From a virus: DNA of 30,778 nucleotides. Below the pieces are notes generated by a model, which worked only from the letters and a program-made list of their open reading frames with translations, did not search any database and was not told the origin of the DNA. The position numbers and the translations under genes were made by a program. Shown here in pieces: positions 1,913 to 30,778 of the stretch (the stretch's first letter is position 1; each line of letters opens with the position of its first letter). The stretch lies in IMG/VR virus record IMGVR_UViG_3300025310_000003, positions 1 to 30,778 of that record, one strand, 5' to 3'.

Positions 1913-2553
1913 TGGTGGACCCGTCGGCCCGTCAGGCGTCTCTGGTAGCCCAGGGCAACGCCGTGGCAGCTCAGGCAGCGGACCGCGTGGCCGTGATCAT
2001 GGGCGCCAGTCTGACCGGCGCCGCGCAGGCCGCCGTGGCTGCGACCAAGGGCGATTCTGGCGCTGGGCTGGATGAGGCGTCTGCGGACATGGCTGCCGCC
2101 CGCGCAGCCATGGCCACCATGGCCACGGATACGGAGGCAGCCCTGGCAGCCACGGCAACCCTGGCAGCCCTGGTCGCCATGGTGTCTGGTTGGCATGGGG
2201 AAATCGCCCTGGCCAACCAGGAATTGCCAGATGGCCTGGATATCGTGGCGGACGTAGCGGGGAACCAGCTCGTGGATGCCATGCGGTCCTGGCCCATCGT
2301 TGGCCACACGGCAGAGGAATGGGGTGCCAACCTGGCACGGTCCTGGCGCTTCCAGGCGGACGGCTTGGTAGGCAATGCCGCCGCCACCGGCACAGACGCG
2401 CATCTCGTAGCGGATTTTCTGGACCTTGCCCGGCGCACCCAGGACAACGCCAAGACCTTGGCTGTGGAGGCGTTCCACGCGGGGGCCGGGGCCGCTCGTG
2501 CCGCTATTCCTGCGGCACTGGAGCGTCTGATGGCAGGCGGCATCCATGGCTGA
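1912..2553 (+). CDS. Hypothetical Ala-rich virion protein
   Basis: The in-frame ATG at 1912 overlaps the TGA of the upstream gene (TGATG). The 213-aa ORF ends 8 nt inside the MuF gene. Confidence 0.6.
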   Translation: MVDPSARQASLVAQGNAVAAQAADRVAVIMGASLTGAAQAAVAATKGDSGAGLDEASADMAAARAAMATMATDTEAALAATATLAALVAMVSGWHGEIALANQELPDGLDIVADVAGNQLVDAMRSWPIVGHTAEEWGANLARSWRFQADGLVGNAAATGTDAHLVADFLDLARRTQDNAKTLAVEAFHAGAGAARAAIPAALERLMAGGIHG

Positions 2554-4600
2554 TCCGATCACCCTGACCATCTCCGTCTCCGACCTGGCGGCATCGTTGG
2601 CGAAACAGGACGCCGCTGCACTGGCAACCGGCGCCCTGGACCGGACGCAGGTGTGGTATGAATTCCTGACCCAGGAGGACACCAGGGTCAGGCCCAGCCA
2701 TCGCGCCCTCCATGGGACCGTGTGGCGCAGCGGCGACCCCAACGCACCCGTGCCGCCCCTCGACTACGGATGCCGGTGCTTCATCCGCTATGTGGCGGCG
2801 CCGGGATCGGAGGCTGCCAACATCCTGCCCACAGCGCCGTCCGCGCCGACCACCCAGGCGGAGGCCATAGGTACGTTCCTGGACAAGGATCCGACCCTCA
2901 CAGCCGCAGGCATCGATTGGCGGAAGCTGGCTGCCCAAGCGGATGCGCTGGACCGTGCCGACCGGGAGCGGTTCCTGGCCATGTCCATCGCCAAGGCTGC
3001 TGACATGCCCATGGGGCACGCGCGGGAGGTGGCGCGGATGATCCTGTCCCAGGGCCAAGCCCGCGCCCTCCGCGCCCCGCCGCTGTCGGCGGAGGAGGCC
3101 GCCGCCAAGGCCACGCAGCACGCGGACGCCTGGCCAGTCGTGGACGCCCAGGCCGTCCAGGCCGCAGCCCAGGCCGCAGCCCAGGCCGCAGCCCAGGACG
3201 CCGTGCAGGCGTCCGCCACGGTGAAGGCCAAGGCCAAGGCCATCATGGAGGCTGCCGCCTCCGGGACGTCTCTGGCGCTGGACAAGCCCCTGGCCCTGCC
3301 GGGCGTATTGGGCTGGATCGCAACGAACAAAACCAGCATCCAGACCACCACACGCACGGCATCGCCGGCCGACCTGGCTGGCATGATTCCCACGGTGTCG
3401 AGCCTGGACGGCGCCGACCTGTCCGCTGGCATCACCGGCACGGCCACCACACAGACACCCGTCGTGGCGGTGGAACTGCCGGGCGGAACCTTCATCGTTT
3501 CGGGCCACACCACGGCCATGGTGGCCCTGGCCACGGGGACGTCTGTCCCCGTCACCATCTACACGGCGGCTGCCATCGCCCAGGCCCAAGCCGTTGCAGC
3601 GGCGGCACGGCAGGCCGCTGCCCAGGCTGCCAAGGCCACAGCCGTTGCCCAGGCACAGGCGCAGGCGCAGGCCGCGGCGGCGGTGTCCAAGGCCATGGGC
3701 GGCCCGGACCTTCCGCCTGTCCCGGCGACCATTCCACCCACGGGGAAGATTCCCACGGCGCCGCACAAGCCCTGGGACAAGCCGCAGCCATCCGATCCTG
3801 GCGCCCTGGCATCCTGGAAGGCCAGCCACGTGTCCATCCAGACCCAGGAGCTGCTGGCGACCCTGCGCCCCCAGACCCAGCCGGACCTGGCCGGGAAGCC
3901 GGGTCGCCCGATCACGGCGGACCACGTGGAAGCCATGGTGAGGGATCCAGCCACGCCAGGCGGAACCTTCAGCCGGGACATCTACCGCAGCGACGTGAAG
4001 ATGCGCCAGGCCGACGAGTCTGCGGCCATCATGGACGGCGAGGCCACCACCGAAGAGCGGATGGGCATACGGAAGTTTACCCGCTATTGGGACTTCATCA
4101 TGCGCCGGGTAGACATGGGGGACACTGACGAACAGTTGGCGGCGCATCTGCGCTACCACAAGCCCGGCGACGATGCATCCGATATTCCAGACCTGATCAC
4201 CAAGGCCCGCACATATCACGCGGCGGCATATGCTGCCATGGCCCGCATTCCAGCTCGCCGCTATGAATACCTGTATCGTGGTCACAGGAACCTGACCGCA
4301 GCGGCGGTGGCATCCGTGTTGGGGGCGACAGAACTCGATTTCGGCTCCCTGTCATCGGCCACCACAAACCCGCGCACTGCCGTTGGGTTTGCGAGCGCCA
4401 CGGGCGGGCGCCACGCCATGATATTCCGCATGAAAAACGCTTCCGGACTGCCGATTTCGGCAGTATCGCAGTATCCAGACGAGGATGAGGTTCTCATCTC
4501 CCGCCAGCACCGATACCGTATCACCGGATACGCCCTGGATACAACCGCCTCGGCGCAGGCGCCACGGTGGATCGTAGACCTGGAGCAGATGCACCCATGA
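2546..4600 (+). CDS. MuF / SPP1 gp7-like minor head protein fused to a C-terminal ADP-ribosyltransferase (R-S-E type) toxin domain
   Basis: N-terminus: QEDTRVRPSHRALHGTVW...PLDYGCRCF matches the Phage_Mu_F signature (R.sH..l.G ... nCRC). C-terminus: YLYRG (Arg, cgt at 4276-4278), FGSLSSATT (STS-like, about 4340-4366) and PDEDEVLISR (E-x-E, gag gat gag at 4481-4489). The middle of the protein consists of low-complexity AQAA linkers. Confidence 0.85.
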   Translation: MADPITLTISVSDLAASLAKQDAAALATGALDRTQVWYEFLTQEDTRVRPSHRALHGTVWRSGDPNAPVPPLDYGCRCFIRYVAAPGSEAANILPTAPSAPTTQAEAIGTFLDKDPTLTAAGIDWRKLAAQADALDRADRERFLAMSIAKAADMPMGHAREVARMILSQGQARALRAPPLSAEEAAAKATQHADAWPVVDAQAVQAAAQAAAQAAAQDAVQASATVKAKAKAIMEAAASGTSLALDKPLALPGVLGWIATNKTSIQTTTRTASPADLAGMIPTVSSLDGADLSAGITGTATTQTPVVAVELPGGTFIVSGHTTAMVALATGTSVPVTIYTAAAIAQAQAVAAAARQAAAQAAKATAVAQAQAQAQAAAAVSKAMGGPDLPPVPATIPPTGKIPTAPHKPWDKPQPSDPGALASWKASHVSIQTQELLATLRPQTQPDLAGKPGRPITADHVEAMVRDPATPGGTFSRDIYRSDVKMRQADESAAIMDGEATTEERMGIRKFTRYWDFIMRRVDMGDTDEQLAAHLRYHKPGDDASDIPDLITKARTYHAAAYAAMARIPARRYEYLYRGHRNLTAAAVASVLGATELDFGSLSSATTNPRTAVGFASATGGRHAMIFRMKNASGLPISAVSQYPDEDEVLISRQHRYRITGYALDTTASAQAPRWIVDLEQMHP
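3147..3196 (+). repeat. 12-bp tandem repeat (gccgcagcccag x3, plus degenerate flanks) encoding an (AAQA)n linker inside the MuF gene
   Basis: Read directly: gcccaggccgtccag gccgcagcccag gccgcagcccag gccgcagcccag gac. Confidence 0.8.
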
Positions 4601-5408: not shown

Positions 5409-5810
5409 ATGGCAGCCCCCACCGTCCACCTGCTGAACTCAGCCACCTTCACCCCGCCCAGCCCAGGCTCGCCCATCGTGTTTGCGGACGCTCAGTCCGC
5501 CAGCATCGATGAGGGCGGCCAGGTGTCGGAATACACCAGCGCTGCTGCCACCGATGTGCAGCTGATCGCCGTGGACCGCATCGCGGCCACCGTCACGCTG
5601 ACCCTCCTGTCGTACCTGGATGCGCCCGCCGTTGGCGATCCCGGAAGCCTGTCCATCGAACTGAAGGCGCGGGCCGAGGGCAAGGGGACCGCAGGCGCGG
5701 CCGTCACGAAAACGTGGGGCAAGGCCGTCTGCACCGGCAAGGGCCTCGGCCCCGTGATCGAAGGGACCCCCAGCTACACCATCACGTTCCGCTGCCACGC
5801 GGCCCCGTGA
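5409..5810 (+). CDS. Major tail (tube) protein, small TP901-1/GTA-like size class
   Basis: 133 aa and beta-rich. AGGA SD 8 nt upstream. It sits immediately before the chaperone and tape-measure genes. Confidence 0.6.
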   Translation: MAAPTVHLLNSATFTPPSPGSPIVFADAQSASIDEGGQVSEYTSAAATDVQLIAVDRIAATVTLTLLSYLDAPAVGDPGSLSIELKARAEGKGTAGAAVTKTWGKAVCTGKGLGPVIEGTPSYTITFRCHAAP

Positions 5811-5812
5811 CG

Positions 5813-6316
5813 ATGGACCAAGCCACGTTGGACGCCCGGCGGCATAGGTCGCCGGAGCCGGAAGCCCATGCTGTCGCACTGCCGGTCGCTGGACTGGTGC
5901 TGTATGTGGTTCCGTGTCAATTCACGCCCGCAGATGCCATGGCCGGGACCCTGACGGAGTACCAAGCGGCCGTAGACAAGCTGGCCGAGCAATGGCGCCG
6001 CGCCGACCTGTTCAAGTCCAAGGTGGACGGGACGGCCCTGGCGGACGTCGCATGGGGCGCGGTGGCAACCGCCTACGACCTGACCCGCGAAGAACTGGAA
6101 TGCTTGGTGGCGGGCGAGGGGGACAAGGCCGCAGACTTGGTGGTGTCGCTGGCGGCTGCCGCCTGTGGGCGCATGCCCAGTGTGCTCCGGACGCGCCGCC
6201 GCCGAGCCTTGTGGGCGTGCATGATCGGCCTGTCATCCGTCGCCATAACCCCCGACGAAATGGCCATCCTGGCCGATTGGGCAGAGAACACCGGCAACGC
6301 CCCCCGTGGAGGCTGA
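5813..6316 (+). CDS. Tail assembly chaperone (by position)
   Basis: 167-aa ORF between the tube and tape-measure genes. The ATG lies 3 nt after the upstream stop. Confidence 0.5.
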   Translation: MDQATLDARRHRSPEPEAHAVALPVAGLVLYVVPCQFTPADAMAGTLTEYQAAVDKLAEQWRRADLFKSKVDGTALADVAWGAVATAYDLTREELECLVAGEGDKAADLVVSLAAAACGRMPSVLRTRRRRALWACMIGLSSVAITPDEMAILADWAENTGNAPRGG

Positions 6317-14654: not shown

Positions 14655-15401
14655 TCATGGCGCGGGCGCCGGCCGGGCACCTGCCGCCGACTCCTGGGCA
14701 TTCCCCTGTCTGGCGCGGTGGCGCTTCCCCCACGCAGTGGCGACCGATTCGTAATCCTTGGCCCAGCGGGATTGTATGCCATGGGCGCGGCGAGCGGCGG
14801 CGCATGCGGCCAGGCATGCCAGTGCATCCTCCAGGCACGTGGCGCCCGCGTCCAGCGCCAGCCCCTGCCATTCCTCCAATGCCGTGTCATCGCTGGCGAA
14901 CCGATGCCGGGCCAGGGCCGTGCGGAATCGTTCGCGGGATGACTTGAGCGGTGGCTTCGGTGGCGTCGGTGGCGTTGGTGGCGTCGGTGGCGTTGGTGGC
15001 GTTGGTGGCGTTGGTGGCGTTGGTGGCGTTGGTGGCGGGACTGCCAGCTGGGTTGGCGCCTGGCCTGGGAGCGGGCGCTTCCACCGGGCCTCGGCAGCCA
15101 TGCGGGCGCGGGCCAGGGTCCGCCCATAGGACTCCACGGCATCTGCCGGATAGTAGGCCACCACCAGATCCGACCCCTCCCACCGCCAGAGGGGGCATGG
15201 CCGTGATACTTCCGCCAGCGTCACCCGCGCCTGCTGTTGCCAGTGCCGGTCCCCCCATGTTTTGCAGTCGGCTATCCGTCCACCGTCTGCCAGCATCACG
15301 GCCAGCCGGAGCAGGCATATCCAGGTGGCCCGATCCAGTGGTTCCGCCCCGATGAATGCGACGCTGTCCAATGCTTCAGCGGAGATGTAGATATGTCGCA
15401 T
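14655..15401 (-). CDS. DUF1376-like early protein with a (TPP)8 linker (possible replication/primosome-associated role)
   Basis: MRHIYISAEALDSVAFIGAEPLDRATWICLLRLAVMLADGGRI resembles the DUF1376 N-terminal domain. The central linker reads PPPTPPTPPTPPTPPTPPTPPTPPTPPKPP. An alternative start at 15458 lies inside a strong hairpin. Confidence 0.55.
   Translation of the reverse strand: MRHIYISAEALDSVAFIGAEPLDRATWICLLRLAVMLADGGRIADCKTWGDRHWQQQARVTLAEVSRPCPLWRWEGSDLVVAYYPADAVESYGRTLARARMAAEARWKRPLPGQAPTQLAVPPPTPPTPPTPPTPPTPPTPPTPPTPPKPPLKSSRERFRTALARHRFASDDTALEEWQGLALDAGATCLEDALACLAACAAARRAHGIQSRWAKDYESVATAWGKRHRARQGNAQESAAGARPAPAP
14951..15040. repeat. 9-bp tandem repeat (ggtggcgtY), about 10 units, encoding the (TPP)n linker on the - strand
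   Basis: Read directly: ggtggcttc ggtggcgtc ggtggcgtt ggtggcgtc ggtggcgtt x5 ggtggcggg. Confidence 0.9.
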
Positions 15402-15470: not shown

Positions 15471-16448
15471 TCAGTATGGGTCCTCCGCCGCCGTGGCCTC
15501 GGCGACGTGGCGGCTGAACCACGCTGGCGGGACTACCGGCTGACGTGCCATGCCCAGGTCCCGTGGCCAATCATCGCGCCGCCACAAATCCAACGCCAGC
15601 TCCAGGCTCCGCATGTTGGTGTCGTGGGCGGCATCCAGGATGGCGTCCGACAGGTCGTAGACGCGGACGCGATGGACAGACCCCTTCTCGACGGCCAGAA
15701 GCGCAGCAGGAAGCCTGCGTCCGGTTTCCTGCTGCACGATCCACCGATACCAAGCCATCTGCCGGTGGTAGTGATGGCGGAAGATATCATCCATGAACCC
15801 GGAGATGTTGTCGCAGGTCTTCAGGTCGACGATGGCGGACCATGCGTCCGCGGATGCCGCCGCGCTGACGATCCAGTCGAGCTTCGCTTTGATCGGAACC
15901 CCCCCTTCATCCTGAAAAAACGCAGCCTCCGGGATGCCGCTTCGCAGGAGTCCGGCTGCGTCTGGGGTCTGCATGGCTGCGGTGCGCATGCTTACGACCA
16001 TGGCCACCTCCTTGGCGTCGGCCACCAGGCGGCCCTCCGCCTCCTGGGCCACCAGCCACGCACGACACGGCCCTGCGTTCCAATTCCAGGGCTTTTCTTC
16101 CGCCGGCGGGCCGTCCGGATATTCCGCTGGCGTGGGCTTGTCCGGATGGGAAGCCTGCCATTCCCTGCAATATTTGGCACGCGGATTCCAGGGTTTCATG
16201 TCCGGCGGCGCGGTGGTGTAGGTTGGGGGCACGCACGCCACACGGGCAGCTACGGCGGTGTCACCCTCCAGCACGGCCAGGTGGGTCAGCCTGCCCACCC
16301 GGAATGCATCCGTCTCCGGCTTGCCGATCAGTCCGCGCATGCGGCCGATGGCCCCAGCTGGTCCCCAGGTTTCCAGGTCCCGCAGGAAATGGAAGGAAAT
16401 GGCCTGTGTCCCGTGGTATTCACGGTCGGACATGTCAAGGCGGATCAT
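15471..16448 (-). CDS. RecE/RecB-family PD-(D/E)XK exonuclease (DUF3799 / exodeoxyribonuclease VIII-like)
   Basis: DREYHG...ISFHFL at the N-terminus, then KAKLDWIV...AIVDLKT (D..D-x-K) and YHRQMAWY (QxxxY). ATGA overlap with the upstream ERF gene. Confidence 0.75.
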   Translation of the reverse strand: MIRLDMSDREYHGTQAISFHFLRDLETWGPAGAIGRMRGLIGKPETDAFRVGRLTHLAVLEGDTAVAARVACVPPTYTTAPPDMKPWNPRAKYCREWQASHPDKPTPAEYPDGPPAEEKPWNWNAGPCRAWLVAQEAEGRLVADAKEVAMVVSMRTAAMQTPDAAGLLRSGIPEAAFFQDEGGVPIKAKLDWIVSAAASADAWSAIVDLKTCDNISGFMDDIFRHHYHRQMAWYRWIVQQETGRRLPAALLAVEKGSVHRVRVYDLSDAILDAAHDTNMRSLELALDLWRRDDWPRDLGMARQPVVPPAWFSRHVAEATAAEDPY

Positions 16449-17146
16449 GCGGCCCCCGCGTGATGAGCCGCCATGCCCTCAAGCTCGGTCAGGGCTGCCA
16501 TCTTGTTCATCCCGTGCTTGGTTTTCAAAGCGTTCGCCTGATGATGGGCTTCCTCCGCCCCCAGGGCGCTCGTCAGCTTGGCCAGGGCGGCATCCCACCT
16601 GGCCCTCCCGGTGGCCTGTCCCGTGGGCCCTGCGGGCGGGGCGGCATGCTCGGGCGTGGGCGGCGCGGCATGCTCGGGCGTGGGCGGCGCCTGGCGTTGG
16701 TTCGGCTGGCGATCGTAGCGCCGCTCGACGTGGTGGCCGTCCGCCGCATTGCCATCATCATCATCGTCTGCGGCCAAGCCCAACAGGGCCGTGATGCCGT
16801 AGCGGCGGGCGTAGGTGATCGCGGAGCCGAGGGCCTGGTTTCCGGGCCTGTCTGTCTTTACCGGAACAGCCGTTCCCAGGAACTCCCCCGAGGCGTGAAC
16901 GATGATGGTTTCCACAGACAGCCCGTTGTCGTCGGTGTGCACCGTATGGACCACGGACAGGCCGTTGGCTGCCAGCGGCCCACGGATGCAGTCCATGATG
17001 TTGTCCAGCGTGGCATAATCGAAGGAATACGGTGATCCCTCACGCGGGCGGACCGTGACCGACCTGTTTTTGGTCAGGGGTTGGAAGGCGGCATGGGCCT
17101 TGGCCAACGCGGTGGCCAGGTTTGCCATGGTTTCGGAACGGATCAT
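16445..17146 (-). CDS. erf: ERF-family single-strand annealing recombinase
   Basis: LATALAKAHAAFQPLTKN...YSFDYATLDNIMDCIRGPLAANGL...HASGEF...QALGSAITYARRYGITALLGLAADDDDDG is the classic ERF pattern. GGAG lies 8 nt upstream of the ATG at 17146. Confidence 0.85.
   Translation of the reverse strand: MIRSETMANLATALAKAHAAFQPLTKNRSVTVRPREGSPYSFDYATLDNIMDCIRGPLAANGLSVVHTVHTDDNGLSVETIIVHASGEFLGTAVPVKTDRPGNQALGSAITYARRYGITALLGLAADDDDDGNAADGHHVERRYDRQPNQRQAPPTPEHAAPPTPEHAAPPAGPTGQATGRARWDAALAKLTSALGAEEAHHQANALKTKHGMNKMAALTELEGMAAHHAGAA
16641..16688. repeat. Perfect 24-bp tandem duplication inside erf (encodes APPTPEHA x2)
   Basis: gcggcatgctcgggcgtgggcggc occurs twice in direct succession. Confidence 0.9.
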
Positions 17147-17202
17147 GGGATGGACTCCAGGGGTGGACGATGGGGTGGGATGAGCGGCGAGCGGACCGAG
17201 CG

Positions 17203-17328
17203 TCACGGCCTCCGGATGAGGCGCCACGCGGCGCGGACCAGGAAGCGGACCAGGCGCAGGTCCCGCGTCATGTCGCGAGCGCTGCGGCCCTGGCCACCGA
17301 GGATGAGGGGAGGGGTTGGGTCATGCAT
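17203..17328 (-). CDS. Small (41 aa) first gene of the leftward early operon, function unknown
   Basis: ATG CAT GAC ... CCG TGA translates to MHDPTPPLILGGQGRSARDMTRDLRLVRFLVRAAWRLIRRP. About 36 of 41 codons end in G/C. AGGAG lies 7 nt upstream. It is too short for the supplied ORF track. Confidence 0.55.
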   Translation of the reverse strand: MHDPTPPLILGGQGRSARDMTRDLRLVRFLVRAAWRLIRRP

Positions 17329-17335
17329 GGGTCGG

Positions 17336-17374
17336 CTCCTGGGCGGAGTGATATGCTCGCTGGGCATATGTCAA
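17336..17374 (-). promoter_or_regulatory. Leftward early promoter plus RBS: TTGACA-N15-TATCAC, then AGGAG
   Basis: The - strand reads cggctgTTGACAtatgcccagcgagcaTATCACtccgcccAGGAGccgacccATG. The spacer and -10 carry GAGCATAT and CATATG copies of the motif repeated in the control region. Confidence 0.6.
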
Positions 17375-17547
17375 CAGCCGGGCGCAGCCCAGGATGCGCG
17401 GATGGCTGGATCGTGGGCTGGCCAGGAACCCCTGGTGGTGTGTCCGCGAGGCGTGGTGTTCGAACAGACACCAACGGAACACCCAGGGCCACCACCACCG
17501 CCCCAGGCCGTGTGACCTGGGGCCTGTCGTGTCCGTGAGCTGCTCCC

Positions 17548-17634
17548 ATGCACATGCTCATGCTCACGCATATGCTCACGCATATGCTCATGCACATGCT
17601 CGCGCATATGCTCACGCATATGCTCACGCAATGC
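17548..17634. repeat. Iteron-like array: 12-bp units NNGCAYATGCTC x6, plus a 6-bp half unit and a degenerate end
   Basis: atgcacatgctc atgctc acgcatatgctc acgcatatgctc atgcacatgctc gcgcatatgctc acgcatatgctc acgcaatgct. All three frames on each strand give nonsense repeat peptides (HAHAYAHAY, EHMREHM, SICVSIC). Confidence 0.85.
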
Positions 17635-17635
17635 T

Positions 17636-17674
17636 ATGAAATGAAATGAAATGAAATGAAATGAAAGGGGGGGG
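17636..17674. repeat. (ATGAA)6 pentanucleotide microsatellite followed by A and a G8 homopolymer. This is the most AT-rich spot in the genome.
   Basis: atgaa x6 at 17636-17665, then a, then gggggggg at 17667-17674. A 7-bp GC hairpin (ggggcgc gga gcgcccc) follows at 17679-17695. Confidence 0.9.
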
Positions 17675-17900
17675 ATAGGGGGCGCGGAGCGCCCCAGCCC
17701 CGCCCGCCAGGGACACACCCGGCAGGAGCACGGCACCCCGATGCGTCACGCGACCCCCCAGGGACAAGGCCCATGCCAGAGATGGCCTGACGCACGGCCG
17801 CAAGATGGTCAATTTGCGAGGATCGGACCTCGGACCGGCCACGGACACCATCCCAGATAAAAAGCCCGCAAATCGACGAAAAAACGGTGACACATTTTGT

Positions 17901-17928
17901 CAATGCTTGAGCATATGCTCAAGCATTG
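17901..17928. promoter_or_regulatory. Perfect 28-bp palindrome CAATGCTTGAGCAT|ATGCTCAAGCATTG (candidate operator)
   Basis: The reverse complement of caatgcttgagcat is atgctcaagcattg. The core GAGCATATGCTC shares the ATATGCTC unit with the iteron array. Confidence 0.8.
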
Positions 17929-18116
17929 CATCCCGACATGCACCCCACCCTGCGGGCGTGCTGCACGTGGTCCCAGGGCCACCTCGCACGGGTCGCGCCA
18001 GCGCCGCCGTCCTCGGCTCGGTTGGCCAGACCTGCCAGACCTTCACATGGCCATCCGCACGCGCTGGCCATGGAATTGACCCCCCATAAATCGGGAGCTG
18101 GCATGACATCGACCGC

Positions 18117-18266
18117 ATGGATGAGCTGTCCCAGATGGCTGAGCGCCTCGGAGTCTCGCCCGGTCTGGTGCGCCGCCTCATCCGCACCGGCTACCGGAAC
18201 GTCCGCATCGCTGCTGTTGATCTCGCCGCCTATCTCGCCACCGTCACGACGAAGGAAACGCCGTGA
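18117..18266 (+). CDS. Small helix-turn-helix DNA-binding protein (Xis/AlpA/MerR-like), first gene of the rightward early operon
   Basis: MDELSQMAERLGVSPGLVRRLIRTGYRNVRIAAVDLAAYLATVTTKETP (49 aa, below the ORF-track cutoff). High GC3. Its stop overlaps the GTG of the next gene (GTGA). Confidence 0.6.
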   Translation: MDELSQMAERLGVSPGLVRRLIRTGYRNVRIAAVDLAAYLATVTTKETP

Positions 18267-18688
18267 GCGACCTCCATGCTCGACCGCATGACCGAGCCTG
18301 CATCCGCTGGACATATCGGGTGTTGGAACTGCTGATGGACATGCTCTGCACGCCGACCCGCTCTGCTGCTGCAATGAAAAAGCTGCGCCGCGCCGAGTAC
18401 GGTCACCCGAGCAGTCAGGATGACATGGCCGCTTTCGACTCCGCTCTGGAATCGGTGCGCGCCGAGCTGCTCGACATGGCACCACATGGACTGGGTGGGG
18501 TTGGGGTCACGCATGACATCATGGGGCAGCATGGCAACCAGCTGCGCTTCGACATCATCCACGAACGCGCGTGCGGCGGCTGGTTTCCGATGCAACCGTC
18601 AAGCCCGAACGCCCAGGCTCGCACGCGTGATCCACAGACCGAGGCAGAGCGGCATGCACGCGCCGAAGAACTGGCATGCACGCTATGA
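18263..18688 (+). CDS. Hypothetical early protein (141 aa)
   Basis: GTG start with AGGAA 6 nt upstream. High GC3. Its stop overlaps the next ATG. Confidence 0.55.
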   Translation: MSDLHARPHDRACIRWTYRVLELLMDMLCTPTRSAAAMKKLRRAEYGHPSSQDDMAAFDSALESVRAELLDMAPHGLGGVGVTHDIMGQHGNQLRFDIIHERACGGWFPMQPSSPNAQARTRDPQTEAERHARAEELACTL

Positions 18689-18927
18689 ACTTCGGTGATC
18701 GCTGCCCATGGTGCGGACACATCATGGACCACAGCCAAGCCATCATCGTCACGGTGCATGGTGACATGATGCACGCCCGGTGCGAGGATGTTCGAAACGC
18801 ACAGATCAGGCGCGACCGCACGCGAGCGGATGCGCCGCCGCGACAGGCGACCGGCATAGGAGCGCAACCACTGACATATCCATCCGAGGCAAAACCCGGC
18901 GCGACTGCCCAGCCTGCGGGTCAATGA
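18685..18927 (+). CDS. Hypothetical early protein with an N-terminal C-x2-C ... H ... C metal-binding pattern
   Basis: MNFGDRCPWCGHIMDH...HARCEDV, with ATGA overlap with the upstream stop. The C-terminal half has poor GC3, so its real 3' end is uncertain. Confidence 0.45.
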   Translation: MNFGDRCPWCGHIMDHSQAIIVTVHGDMMHARCEDVRNAQIRRDRTRADAPPRQATGIGAQPLTYPSEAKPGATAQPAGQ

Positions 18928-19229
18928 CGATGCGGGCGGTCCGGGTCGAGCAGGGCGGACGAAGCTGGCGCGAGGTTCCATGCGAGCGCGGATACCATGC
19001 CAAGGGCAGCAGGATCGACCGCACGACGTACAGCACGCTCGCGCCAGAGGATGCGACTGCGCTGCGCTTCATCCGCGACGCCATCCAGCGAGCCGGAGAC
19101 GCAGAGCGGTGCGGTGACGATCGGCTGCGCCGCCACCTGTACACGCCTGCGCGCGCGCATATCAACCGACGTCAGCCACGCCTGCGCCGCACGCTCGGGC
19201 TTCCTCCCATCACACCGGAGAACACATGA
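18924..19229 (+). CDS. Hypothetical early protein (101 aa from ATG 18924; possibly longer, from GTG 18780)
   Basis: ATGA overlap at 18924. The same frame is open upstream and encodes a CPACG knuckle, so the start is ambiguous. Confidence 0.5.
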   Translation: MTMRAVRVEQGGRSWREVPCERGYHAKGSRIDRTTYSTLAPEDATALRFIRDAIQRAGDAERCGDDRLRRHLYTPARAHINRRQPRLRRTLGLPPITPENT

Positions 19230-19639
19230 CCATCACACAGTCCATCACCGTCGAGCTGAACATTGCCGACCTTCCGGACCCGCGACCGTTCGACATCGAC
19301 GAGGGTGTACGCCTGGGATGCCTGACGCTCTGCGATCCGATGGTTGACGAGGACGACGGTGGCACCGGCATGAAGGACATCGAAGCACGGTGGCCCTGCA
19401 CATCGAACGAAGCCATGTCCTACCACAGCTGGTTCCGCTCCTATGCTCTGCCCATGCTTGCCGCTGGCGGATGCCTGCGCGTGGAGGTCCAGACCGACGA
19501 GGTGCGCGCCGGGCTGTATCAGGCGTTTCGCGGCGATGACCCGCGCGCCTACATGGTCATCACACGCAACGCTCTGGTTGCACCCGGTGCACAACCGGAA
19601 GCGGTCAGAGCGATCATCGACGGTGACGGCCATGCCTGA
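19226..19639 (+). CDS. Hypothetical acidic early protein (137 aa)
   Basis: ATGA overlap with the upstream stop. The protein is strongly D/E-rich (DLPDPRPFDIDEG..., DPMVDEDDGG). Confidence 0.6.
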   Translation: MTITQSITVELNIADLPDPRPFDIDEGVRLGCLTLCDPMVDEDDGGTGMKDIEARWPCTSNEAMSYHSWFRSYALPMLAAGGCLRVEVQTDEVRAGLYQAFRGDDPRAYMVITRNALVAPGAQPEAVRAIIDGDGHA

Positions 19640-19849: not shown

Positions 19850-20187
19850 TGATCAGGGCTGCCGTGGCTCATGACCGGGATGGGGCCAGAGCCTTGCGCG
19901 ATAACCAGGAGACATATGCTCCCGTGCGCATGAGGCACATTCCCACCACGGACGCCAAAGCCATGGGCGCCCGCATCCGGCAGGCCCGCAGGAACGCTGG
20001 ACTCACCCAGGTTCAGGCCAGCCGCAGGGCCGGCATGTCGCAATCCCACCTGTCCCGATGTGAGTGTGGCGCCAAGACACCCAGTCTGGCAACCGCCAAG
20101 GCCTTGGCTCGCGCCCTGAACACCACCACAGCCGCCATCCTGGAAGGCGCAGGACGCGCTGAAACGCCATCGATGCCGGCGTCCTAA
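19849..20187 (+). CDS. XRE / Cro-CI family HTH transcriptional regulator (alternative start ATG 19930)
   Basis: MGARIRQARRNAGLTQVQASRRAGMSQSHLSRCECGAKTPSLATAKALARAL is a textbook XRE HTH. The part of the 168-aa ORF upstream of 19849 has poor GC3. Confidence 0.8.
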   Translation: MIRAAVAHDRDGARALRDNQETYAPVRMRHIPTTDAKAMGARIRQARRNAGLTQVQASRRAGMSQSHLSRCECGAKTPSLATAKALARALNTTTAAILEGAGRAETPSMPAS

Positions 20188-20528: not shown

Positions 20529-20894
20529 ATGGCACGTGGACCAGGGCGGCCGCCGCGCATGATGACGCCTCAGGAATTGGACCAGGCGGAAACGATGGCA
20601 GGCCTGGGTCTACGCGACGATCAGATCGCCCAGGTCCTCGGTATGGCTGAGCGCACCATGACGCGTCATGCGCGGGACCGCCTCCATCGCGGCCGTGCCA
20701 AGGCCCTGGCGGCTGTGGCGCAAACGTGCTACCGCCTGGCCACCAGCGGCAGGTGCCCGGCGGCAACGTTCTTCTACCTCAAAACGCAGGGCCGCTGGCA
20801 GGAGGTGGACCGCAGCGTCCACGTGGACGCCAACAGCACAGCTGGAACCGTCCGCGTGGTGATCCCCCCCGACCCGTCACCGAAGCCTGGATAG
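20529..20894 (+). CDS. terS: Terminase small subunit (HTH-containing)
   Basis: It sits immediately upstream of terL. GLRDDQIAQVLGMAERTMTRH is an HTH, and ATFFYLKTQGRWQE matches the a.iFwLKtr.gW.e motif common in small terminases. AGGA lies 7 nt upstream. Confidence 0.75.
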   Translation: MARGPGRPPRMMTPQELDQAETMAGLGLRDDQIAQVLGMAERTMTRHARDRLHRGRAKALAAVAQTCYRLATSGRCPAATFFYLKTQGRWQEVDRSVHVDANSTAGTVRVVIPPDPSPKPG

Positions 20895-30531: not shown

Positions 30532-30669
30532 GTGAAATACCGTATCGTGCATGCATCCGGCTGGGTCGAGTTTGCGCACGAAGCAGCCGCCATCGTGTAC
30601 CGGGACGAACACCATCCCGGCTCCCCCATCATCACCCTGCCCCTCGACCCACCCGGTCCTCTGGAGTAA
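30532..30669 (+). CDS. Small hypothetical protein (45 aa from GTG 30532)
   Basis: The portion of the 30484..30669 ORF that does not overlap the upstream gene. Its last codons contain the GGAG that serves the 22..399 gene across the circular junction. Confidence 0.35.
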   Translation: MKYRIVHASGWVEFAHEAAAIVYRDEHHPGSPIITLPLDPPGPLE

Positions 30670-30778
30670 GCCATGCCCCCCCCCCGCACGCAGCCGCCAT
30701 CGGACGATGACAGCACCGCCCGGTACGAACACGGCGAGGGAAGCCGGCGCGGCGGGTCCAGCGGGGACATTCCCTCGG
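30652..30778. repeat. Terminal direct repeat, copy 2; holds a duplicate partial copy (30673..30778) of the 5' end of the 22..399 gene
   Basis: Exact 127-bp identity with 1..127. The unique genome length is therefore 30,651 bp. Confidence 0.95.

Follow-up and report, generated by a model that had tools for sequence, protein, structure and literature searches.

The window, meaning the whole stretch of viral DNA that we analyzed (30,778 nucleotides), is a phage genome of ~65% GC. Its first 127 bases (1-127) are repeated exactly at 30652-30778, and this terminal direct repeat indicates a complete genome, circular or terminally redundant, with a unit of 30,651 bp. The identical sequence is present in the Logan assembly of SRR5581334, with near-identical contigs in JGI and ENA. 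Between two early operons of opposite orientation lies a 790-bp stretch (17330-18116) in which no gene is convincing, and a tandem array of 12-bp units sits in this gap (Table 1). The first ORF of the leftward operon, of 41 aa, is conserved in L089, the closest relative of the left arm (tblastn 4e-7). The Erf and PDDEXK exonuclease genes of the same operon are the sole DNA-metabolism genes recognized in the genome; searches of the whole genome with Pfam, PHROGs, and NCBIfam recognized no replication initiator, helicase, primase, or polymerase. No integrase was recognized anywhere in the genome, Rfam at the gathering threshold gave no RNA family across the window, and a tRNA/tmRNA scan of the window found none.

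Table 1. Features of the intergenic region, its flanking operons, and the remainder of the genome
Feature	Position	Strand	Description
Structural, tail, and lysis genes	terS at 20529 round to ~15400	+	
terS	20529-20894		
Leftward early operon	41-aa ORF 17203-17329; Erf 16445-17146; PDDEXK exonuclease 15471-16448	-	
Putative leftward-promoter (P_L) operator	17351-17369	-	ATATGC-N7-GCATAT; abuts perfect -35 TTGACA (17369-17374); carries ATATGCTC
Iteron-like array	17548-17631	+	Seven contiguous 12-bp units, ATGC-N4-GCAT
(ATGAA)6 tract, candidate DNA-unwinding element	17636-17666	+	Perfect pentanucleotide repeat; TRF x6.2, 100% matches
G8 run, then GC hairpin	17667-17695 (run 17667-17674; hairpin 17679-17695)		GGGGCGC-GGA-GCGCCCC; from sequence
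Perfect 28-bp palindrome	17901-17928		CAATGCTTGAGCATATGCTCAAGCATTG; two array units, inverted; candidate operator of the rightward early operon
Rightward early operon	HTH_17 18117-18266; 141-aa 18263-18688; three small ORFs; 87-aa XRE 19924-20187	+	
HTH_17/excisionase-family protein, 43-49 aa	18117-18266	+	Pfam HTH_17 9.6e-5; NCBIfam 'excise' 1e-3
Conserved 141-aa gene	18263-18688	+	Homologs 0-2 genes downstream of a composite array
Site at the start of the XRE repressor-like gene	from 19913	+	CATATGCTC-N6-GCATG; overlaps RBS and GTG start (gene 19924-20187)

TRF reported the 12-bp array at 17560-17635 (6.4 copies, 89% matches, score 124). Read in register, its units are ATGCACATGCTC, ATGCTCACGCAT (twice), ATGCTCATGCAC, ATGCTCGCGCAT, ATGCTCACGCAT again, and ATGCTCACGCAA; four of the seven are perfect, and the other three are off by one or two bases. 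The palindromic 8-mer GCATATGC forms the core of the array, bridging successive units. Compared with shuffles preserving dinucleotides, both motifs are strongly overrepresented: GCATATGC occurs 7 times in the window vs 0.9 expected, a count reached in 0/100 shuffles, with five copies intergenic, and ATGC-N4-GCAT occurs 7 times vs 1.8 expected, with six copies in this intergenic region. The seven phased copies of ATGCTC reported in the first-pass annotation were located at 17554, 17560, 17572, 17584, 17596, 17608, and 17620, with spacings of 6, 12, 12, 12, 12, and 12 bp. The same annotation had described the DNA as non-coding in all frames, which is inexact, as four ORFs cross the array: 17394-17639 (+), 17548-17649 (+), 17268-17627 (-), and 17371-17736 (-). 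None of them looks coding; the 33-aa one was called by a public gene caller. A scan of 17100-18300 for sigma-70 promoters and intrinsic terminators returned nothing, and DnaA boxes were not enriched (32 vs 34.5 expected). GC skew changes sign near 17.5 kb; this was discarded as origin evidence because gene orientation switches at the same point.

The AT-rich tract lies directly beside the array and begins 4 bp past the last unit. Of all 31-mers in the genome it is the richest in AT (81%, next best 65%), and of all 40-mers the least stable by nearest-neighbor energy (dG -45.8 vs a mean of -63.1, z=5.0); it is also the source of the stop codons in all three plus-strand frames. On the minus strand, the order GC hairpin, C8, (TTCAT)n resembles a terminator and faces a perfect TTGACA at 17898-17903, so arranged that a short leftward transcript with its end at the AT-rich tract is possible. 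It is a matter of speculation whether this TTGACA could drive transcription toward the array in a manner that recalls the transcriptional activation of ori-lambda. GC hairpins are also found 3' of the arrays in two relatives, L001 and L096.

The palindrome downstream of the array is the longest perfect palindrome of the genome, where the next longest has 18 bp and ~1e-4 of this length would be expected by chance. It overlaps a -35-like TTGTCA on the plus strand (17897-17902) as well as the minus-strand TTGACA, and lies ~190 bp from the start of the HTH_17 gene, which is the nearest gene downstream and is not a Rep. The 8-mer ATATGCTC, carried twice by the palindrome, has eight copies with both strands counted, at four places only; the others are at 17351, in the array (four copies), and at 19914 at the XRE start. 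This bears out the claim of a core motif common to the early promoter, palindrome, and XRE gene. At the XRE start, where 19913-19932 reads CATATGCTCCCGTGCGCATG, the position of the site points to autoregulation, or to control of translation or transcription by the protein that reads this motif elsewhere. A further operator type, ATATG-N9-CATAT directly after a -35 TTGAC(A/G), has one copy in the window, at the leftward promoter, and occurs at both divergent promoters of L089 (about 500-525 and 375-400). The P_L site and the palindrome have the usual feature of repressor operators, sites at -35-like elements, and the array does not: it contains no promoter-like site and is ~180 bp from the P_L -35 and ~270-300 bp from the palindrome.

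Weak homologs of the HTH_17 protein are present in L088, L090, and L092. The 141-aa protein was predicted by AF2 to be all-helical (pLDDT 69); Foldseek found no match for the model in PDB or BFVD, and the family matched none in Pfam, PHROGs, NCBIfam, or PDB sequences. A composite array, consisting of a longer-unit array and a short AT-enriched array, is present in every relative with the 141-aa gene for which upstream sequence is available, inside or just before an O-like initiator gene and 0-2 genes upstream of the 141-aa homolog. In L088, a 21-bp x3.2 array and (ACAGT)x3.6 lie inside a 281-aa ORF; in L090, a 12-bp x7.5 array with core GGATATCC and (ATCGAATA)x3.6 inside a 225-aa ORF; and in L092, a 10/11-bp x6.7 array and (CAGGAT)x4.3 inside a 272-aa ORF. 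In L093, the contig opens with an array and the C-terminal domain comes next, and L096/L097 have a 10-bp x4.9 array and (GCAGAGGCAGAT)x2.2 in non-coding DNA before a 243-aa gene. Periods inside ORFs that are not multiples of three, such as the 10/11 bp of L092, show that the repeat is maintained in DNA and not in peptide.

The proteins that host or adjoin these arrays are modular and homologous to one another. An N-terminal domain is common to L092_272, L096_243, and L001_231, and a C-terminal domain to L088_281, L096_243, and L093_91; in BLASTP, L088_281 and L090_225 had no significant match to each other. Searches of L001_231, L092_272, L096_243, L088_281, and L090_225 against Pfam, PHROGs, NCBIfam, and PDB sequences gave no family, and L088_281 matched a local HMM of DUF1376 at E=0.014 only. 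In L092 and L094, a DnaC/DnaI/IstB-like ATPase is encoded between the array gene and the 141-aa homolog (NCBIfam E 3.6e-13 and 4e-7, both below the curated cut-offs).

TerL-based scans of metagenome and genome collections gave few close relatives, a Solibacteraceae MAG being the single match in the genome collections, and only L001 was syntenic. L001 is the nearest by TerL (75% identity) and has the same Erf/exonuclease, XRE, and terminase layout. Its divergent region holds two composite arrays, in which seven or four repeats of GTAATCCAAC come first, then four or three of GCAGAGGCAGAT, then a GC hairpin. They are not related in sequence to the array and tract of the window, and the architecture is alike. 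In L001, L096, and L097, the arrays are in non-coding DNA ahead of a winged-helix-like gene. The L001 core GTAATC recurs as a palindrome, TGATTACAGTAATCA, 29 bp before the first rightward gene, paralleling the palindrome of the window, and the L096 unit recurs near the start of the downstream gene as two copies of GACAGTCAGCA. Several smaller features were also seen: the composite element of L001, with its 10-bp array, 12-bp array, and GC hairpin, is duplicated as a whole ~340 bp apart (5599-5740 and 5938-6040), the second-array unit GCAGAGGCAGAT is common to L001 and L096/L097 while their first-array units differ, and L001 encodes a ParB_N protein.

In L088, the 141-aa homolog is 82% identical, and the array has ATGC-N4-GCA(T/A) sites, which five other relatives lack. 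DNA identity to L088 (91%) begins only at 18286, within the 141-aa gene, which implies that the O-like gene of L088 has been replaced here by non-coding DNA and the HTH_17 gene. The fragmentary relative L089 has a 180-bp divergent region without an array, on a contig of only 2.6 kb. A blastn search of INPHARED with 16400-19400 matched the Erf gene only, and an exact 22-mer of the array had no match in IMG/VR.

We searched IMG/VR with a pattern of three phased GCATATGC units (24 fixed bases, N4 free). The pattern was found in 17 unrelated viral contigs from five lineages spanning 30-69% GC. In four of the five lineages, the array lies within a gene with a DUF1376 N-terminus (PF07120, the family of YdaU from the Rac prophage) (E 3e-24 to 3e-3), just past a basic '...A..RW' helix, and in the fifth (L115), it starts 6 bp past the stop codon that ends a DUF1376 gene of 130 aa. 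Their translations are HMxx (L106), CDRI/CGGI (L100), and ATAY/ADAY (L101 and L114); with three reading frames in use, what is conserved is the DNA. In the low-GC lineage (L106, L110, L113), an (ATGAAA)n-like tract, almost the (ATGAA)6 of the window, follows the array, and in the other lineages different short repeats do so. Neighboring genes include DnaB helicase (7e-73, L101), DnaA_N (L115), Bac_DnaA_C (L106), and RusA (L104).

Two further details of these phages were recorded. L101, L106/L102, and L114 have one or two extra GCATATGC or ATGC-N4-GCAT sites in the DUF1376-coding part, 130-215 bp upstream of the array, a distance similar to that of the 17351 site of the window (~190 bp from the array). 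In L115, 9506-10568 holds the DUF1376 gene, the array, and then a gene with a DnaA N-terminal domain, a layout like that of a split initiator with an internal origin.

The array of the window shares with the DUF1376 arrays the identical 8-bp core, the 12-bp phase with N4 free, at least three contiguous units, and a downstream short-period AT-enriched tract, and by these sequence features it belongs to an iteron class that goes with DUF1376-type initiators and with replication modules. It differs in having seven units, compared to 3-5 in intact genes, plus an extra palindromic copy, and in lacking a DUF1376 gene within or against which it lies and any DnaB- or DnaA-domain gene nearby. The link between GCATATGC arrays and DUF1376 genes is apparently undescribed: our search of the literature on DUF1376 found nothing about origins, and tblastn of the DUF1376 hosts against cultured phages matched only unannotated Flavobacterium phage proteins. 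New here, then, are the class of contiguous 12-bp iterons with a putative microsatellite unwinding tract, its DUF1376 link, and the orphan state of the array in this phage.

A local HMM built from seven DUF1376 N-termini found no DUF1376 in the 513 stop-to-stop ORFs of the complete genome (best E 2.2), tblastn with the DUF1376 hosts matched only the array itself in the window, and tblastn with all O-like proteins of the relatives was negative. Neither a six-frame reading of 17331-18268 nor tblastn with all array-hosting proteins revealed a decayed initiator gene. In a complete genome with neither a DUF1376 nor an O-like gene, the non-coding array is therefore an orphan. A putative origin inside an initiator-like gene is the arrangement of L088, L090, L092, and the DUF1376 phages and not of the window, where no long ORF spans the array and for which Pfam, PHROGs, NCBIfam, tblastn, and the local HMM gave no cognate initiator. 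The gene downstream is that for the 141-aa protein, without known fold or family, where the equivalent place is taken by the DnaC-like ATPase in L092 and by DnaB helicase in L101.

Origins that combine iterons with an AT-rich tract are textbook knowledge. In ori-lambda, the iterons and AT-rich tract lie in the middle of gene O (PMC7466680). The window resembles it in placing tandem putative initiator sites with internal dyad symmetry, seven where a lambda-type origin calls for at least three, directly beside an easily melted AT-rich tract. The relatives and DUF1376 phages go further, embedding the element in the linker of an initiator gene that is followed by loader or helicase genes; the order of array gene and DnaC-like ATPase in L092/L094 is the lambda O(ori)-P arrangement. 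Copy number also varies between relatives, as among lambdoid origins. Unlike ori-lambda, the window has contiguous 12-bp units in place of ~19-bp ones, its AT-rich tract is a perfect pentanucleotide microsatellite, its array is in non-coding DNA without an O-like gene, and no sequence resemblance links it to lambda O or the lambda iterons.

Iteron plasmids (F, P1, R6K, pPS10, pSC101) offer a second parallel, as their Rep proteins bind direct repeats at ori and an inverted repeat at the rep promoter. Likewise, the window combines direct repeats at the putative origin with a perfect inverted pair of this unit where the adjacent operon begins, and L001 and L096 show the same duality upstream of the winged-helix gene. 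The parallel is incomplete because the gene after the palindrome encodes the 49-aa HTH_17 protein and not a Rep, at the distance given above. As the palindrome is an inverted pair of the array unit, a single sequence-specific protein probably has two tasks, to load on the array and to regulate early transcription, in the manner of the Rep proteins.

Our preferred reading develops the proposal of the first-pass annotation: the array and (ATGAA)6 would form a functional lambda-type origin, made of iterons and an unwinding element, whose binder also acts at the palindrome and is perhaps supplied in trans. To this reading we assign a probability of roughly 0.5. The stability minimum, the arrays of the relatives, and the DUF1376 replication modules speak for an origin, and the two-unit palindrome together with the confinement of ATATGCTC to four places speaks for a binder common to origin and promoters. 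Against the reading stand the lack of a recognizable initiator in a complete genome, the position of the array outside any gene, the lack of enrichment in DnaA boxes, and the array-free divergent region of L089. From the anatomy of the array, the conservation of its class in DNA, and the association with replication modules elsewhere, all of which were observed, we infer that it may fire replication in this phage. In the mechanism we envisage, a sequence-specific protein would bind the ATGC-N4-GCAT units and bend or wrap the array, upon which the adjoining (ATGAA)6 would open for helicase loading. The same protein, as a dimer on the 28-bp palindrome, would regulate the rightward early operon.

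The binder could be one of four proteins, each a candidate suggested by a different observation. The HTH_17 protein is encoded by the first gene after the palindrome, and members of its family bind to repeats in tandem. Such arrays always accompany the 141-aa protein, whose predicted structure is all-helical. The XRE protein has a ATATGCTC site at its own start, and a DUF1376 initiator might act in trans.

Of the rival explanations, a purely regulatory role is possible, if on the improbable side. The array would then be a multi-site operator or titration array without a function in replication, with the XRE or HTH_17 protein coating the tandem sites and cooperating, for instance through a DNA loop, with the palindrome and the P_L operator at the divergent early promoters. 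This would account for the location of the array in the control region from which the two early operons diverge, for the restriction of ATATGCTC to P_L, the array, the palindrome, and the XRE start, for the -35-like hexamers that adjoin the palindrome and the P_L site, and for the failure to find an initiator gene. HTH_17/excisionase-type proteins such as lambda Xis, P2 Cox, and 186 Apl do bind tandem direct repeats, and a small HTH_17 gene next to directly repeated sites near divergent promoters is reminiscent of those systems. However, the window has no integrase or att site, its period is 12 bp compared to ~10-11 bp, and the motif class is linked elsewhere to initiators, not excisionases. 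In other phages, the same class is found in the middle of initiator genes, far from promoters and within replication modules, and arrays of the relatives lie inside ORFs. An operator has no obvious use for the perfect AT-rich microsatellite that marks the stability minimum, and no promoter-like site is overlapped by the array, in contrast to OR/OL-type operator clusters, which overlap the -35/-10 elements of the promoters they regulate.

Because the GCATATGC core is conserved across very different DUF1376 phages, a role for an initiator from outside the phage also has to be considered. The array could be an origin fired by the DUF1376 initiator of a resident prophage or host ('initiator piracy'), or the array and palindrome could sense or titrate the initiator of a competitor, serving as a decoy. 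We regard either version as unlikely. If one of them were true, replication and early transcription of this phage would depend on another mobile element.

It is also unlikely, and to our minds doubtful, that the array is a relic, left when an ancestral initiator gene with an internal origin, like that of L088, was lost by recombination. Slippage would then keep the array regular, and the phage would replicate otherwise, for example by Erf/exonuclease recombination-dependent replication. The onset of L088 identity only within the 141-aa gene, with the O-like gene upstream replaced, fits such a loss, as do the 790-bp non-coding stretch, unusual for a compact genome, and the lack of an initiator in our searches. 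Decay is harder to reconcile with an array that is larger than those in intact genes and at least as regular, with a perfect (ATGAA)6, or with a perfect palindrome of the same units at a promoter, given how rarely one would arise by chance. The motif is moreover confined to four regulatory places, and identical or near-identical genomes were assembled from several samples.

That the array serves the small terminase as a pac site, or an episomal prophage as a centromere-like site for partition, is very improbable. Sites bound by TerS and by ParR/ParG are typically tandem short repeats, the genome has no recognized integrase, and L001 has its ParB_N protein, which would agree with functions of this kind. 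Yet the array is 2.9 kb from terS, neither in nor next to it, and in the relatives it is inherited with the replication module and not the terminase; no ParA or ParB was found in the window, and the motif class is tied to DUF1376, DnaB, and DnaA-domain genes. Least credible of all is a small repeat peptide from the 33-aa ORF at 17548-17649 (MHMLMLTHMLTHML...), which does exist and was called by an automatic gene finder in a public assembly, since the motif is read in three frames in other phages and follows a stop codon in one lineage, a third codon position and the first position of the following codon are among the conserved bases while N4 is free, and there is no convincing RBS.

Should the lambda-type origin reading be true, it would locate the origin of an uncultured, high-GC phage of 30.6 kb without an annotated replication gene. 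A DNA signature that combines GCATATGC in 12-bp phase with a short AT-enriched repeat would then mark origins inside DUF1376/YdaU-type genes in phages of hosts with 30 to 69% GC, for a domain whose function is still listed as unknown. The window would offer a natural example of an origin and its initiator set apart, in which firing in trans and the coupling of replication to transcription become testable. The signature could also improve automatic annotation, as gene callers now read such arrays as coding.

Other repeats and domains were noted away from the intergenic region. A tandem repeat, (GGTGGCGTT)x9.8, at 14950-15037 (score 148) lies in the ORF 14951-15355 (+) and encodes a Gly-Gly-Val repeat in a 134-aa protein without a family match. 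In the minus-strand Erf gene, a 24-bp x2.4 repeat at 16634-16690 corresponds to a duplicated PPTPEHAA in the C-terminal tail. A 684-aa protein (2546-4600, +) combines an N-terminal Mu F-like head-morphogenesis domain with a C-terminal NAD:arginine ADP-ribosyltransferase domain (PF01129, 3.4e-6), and may be a host-modifying enzyme delivered by the virion.
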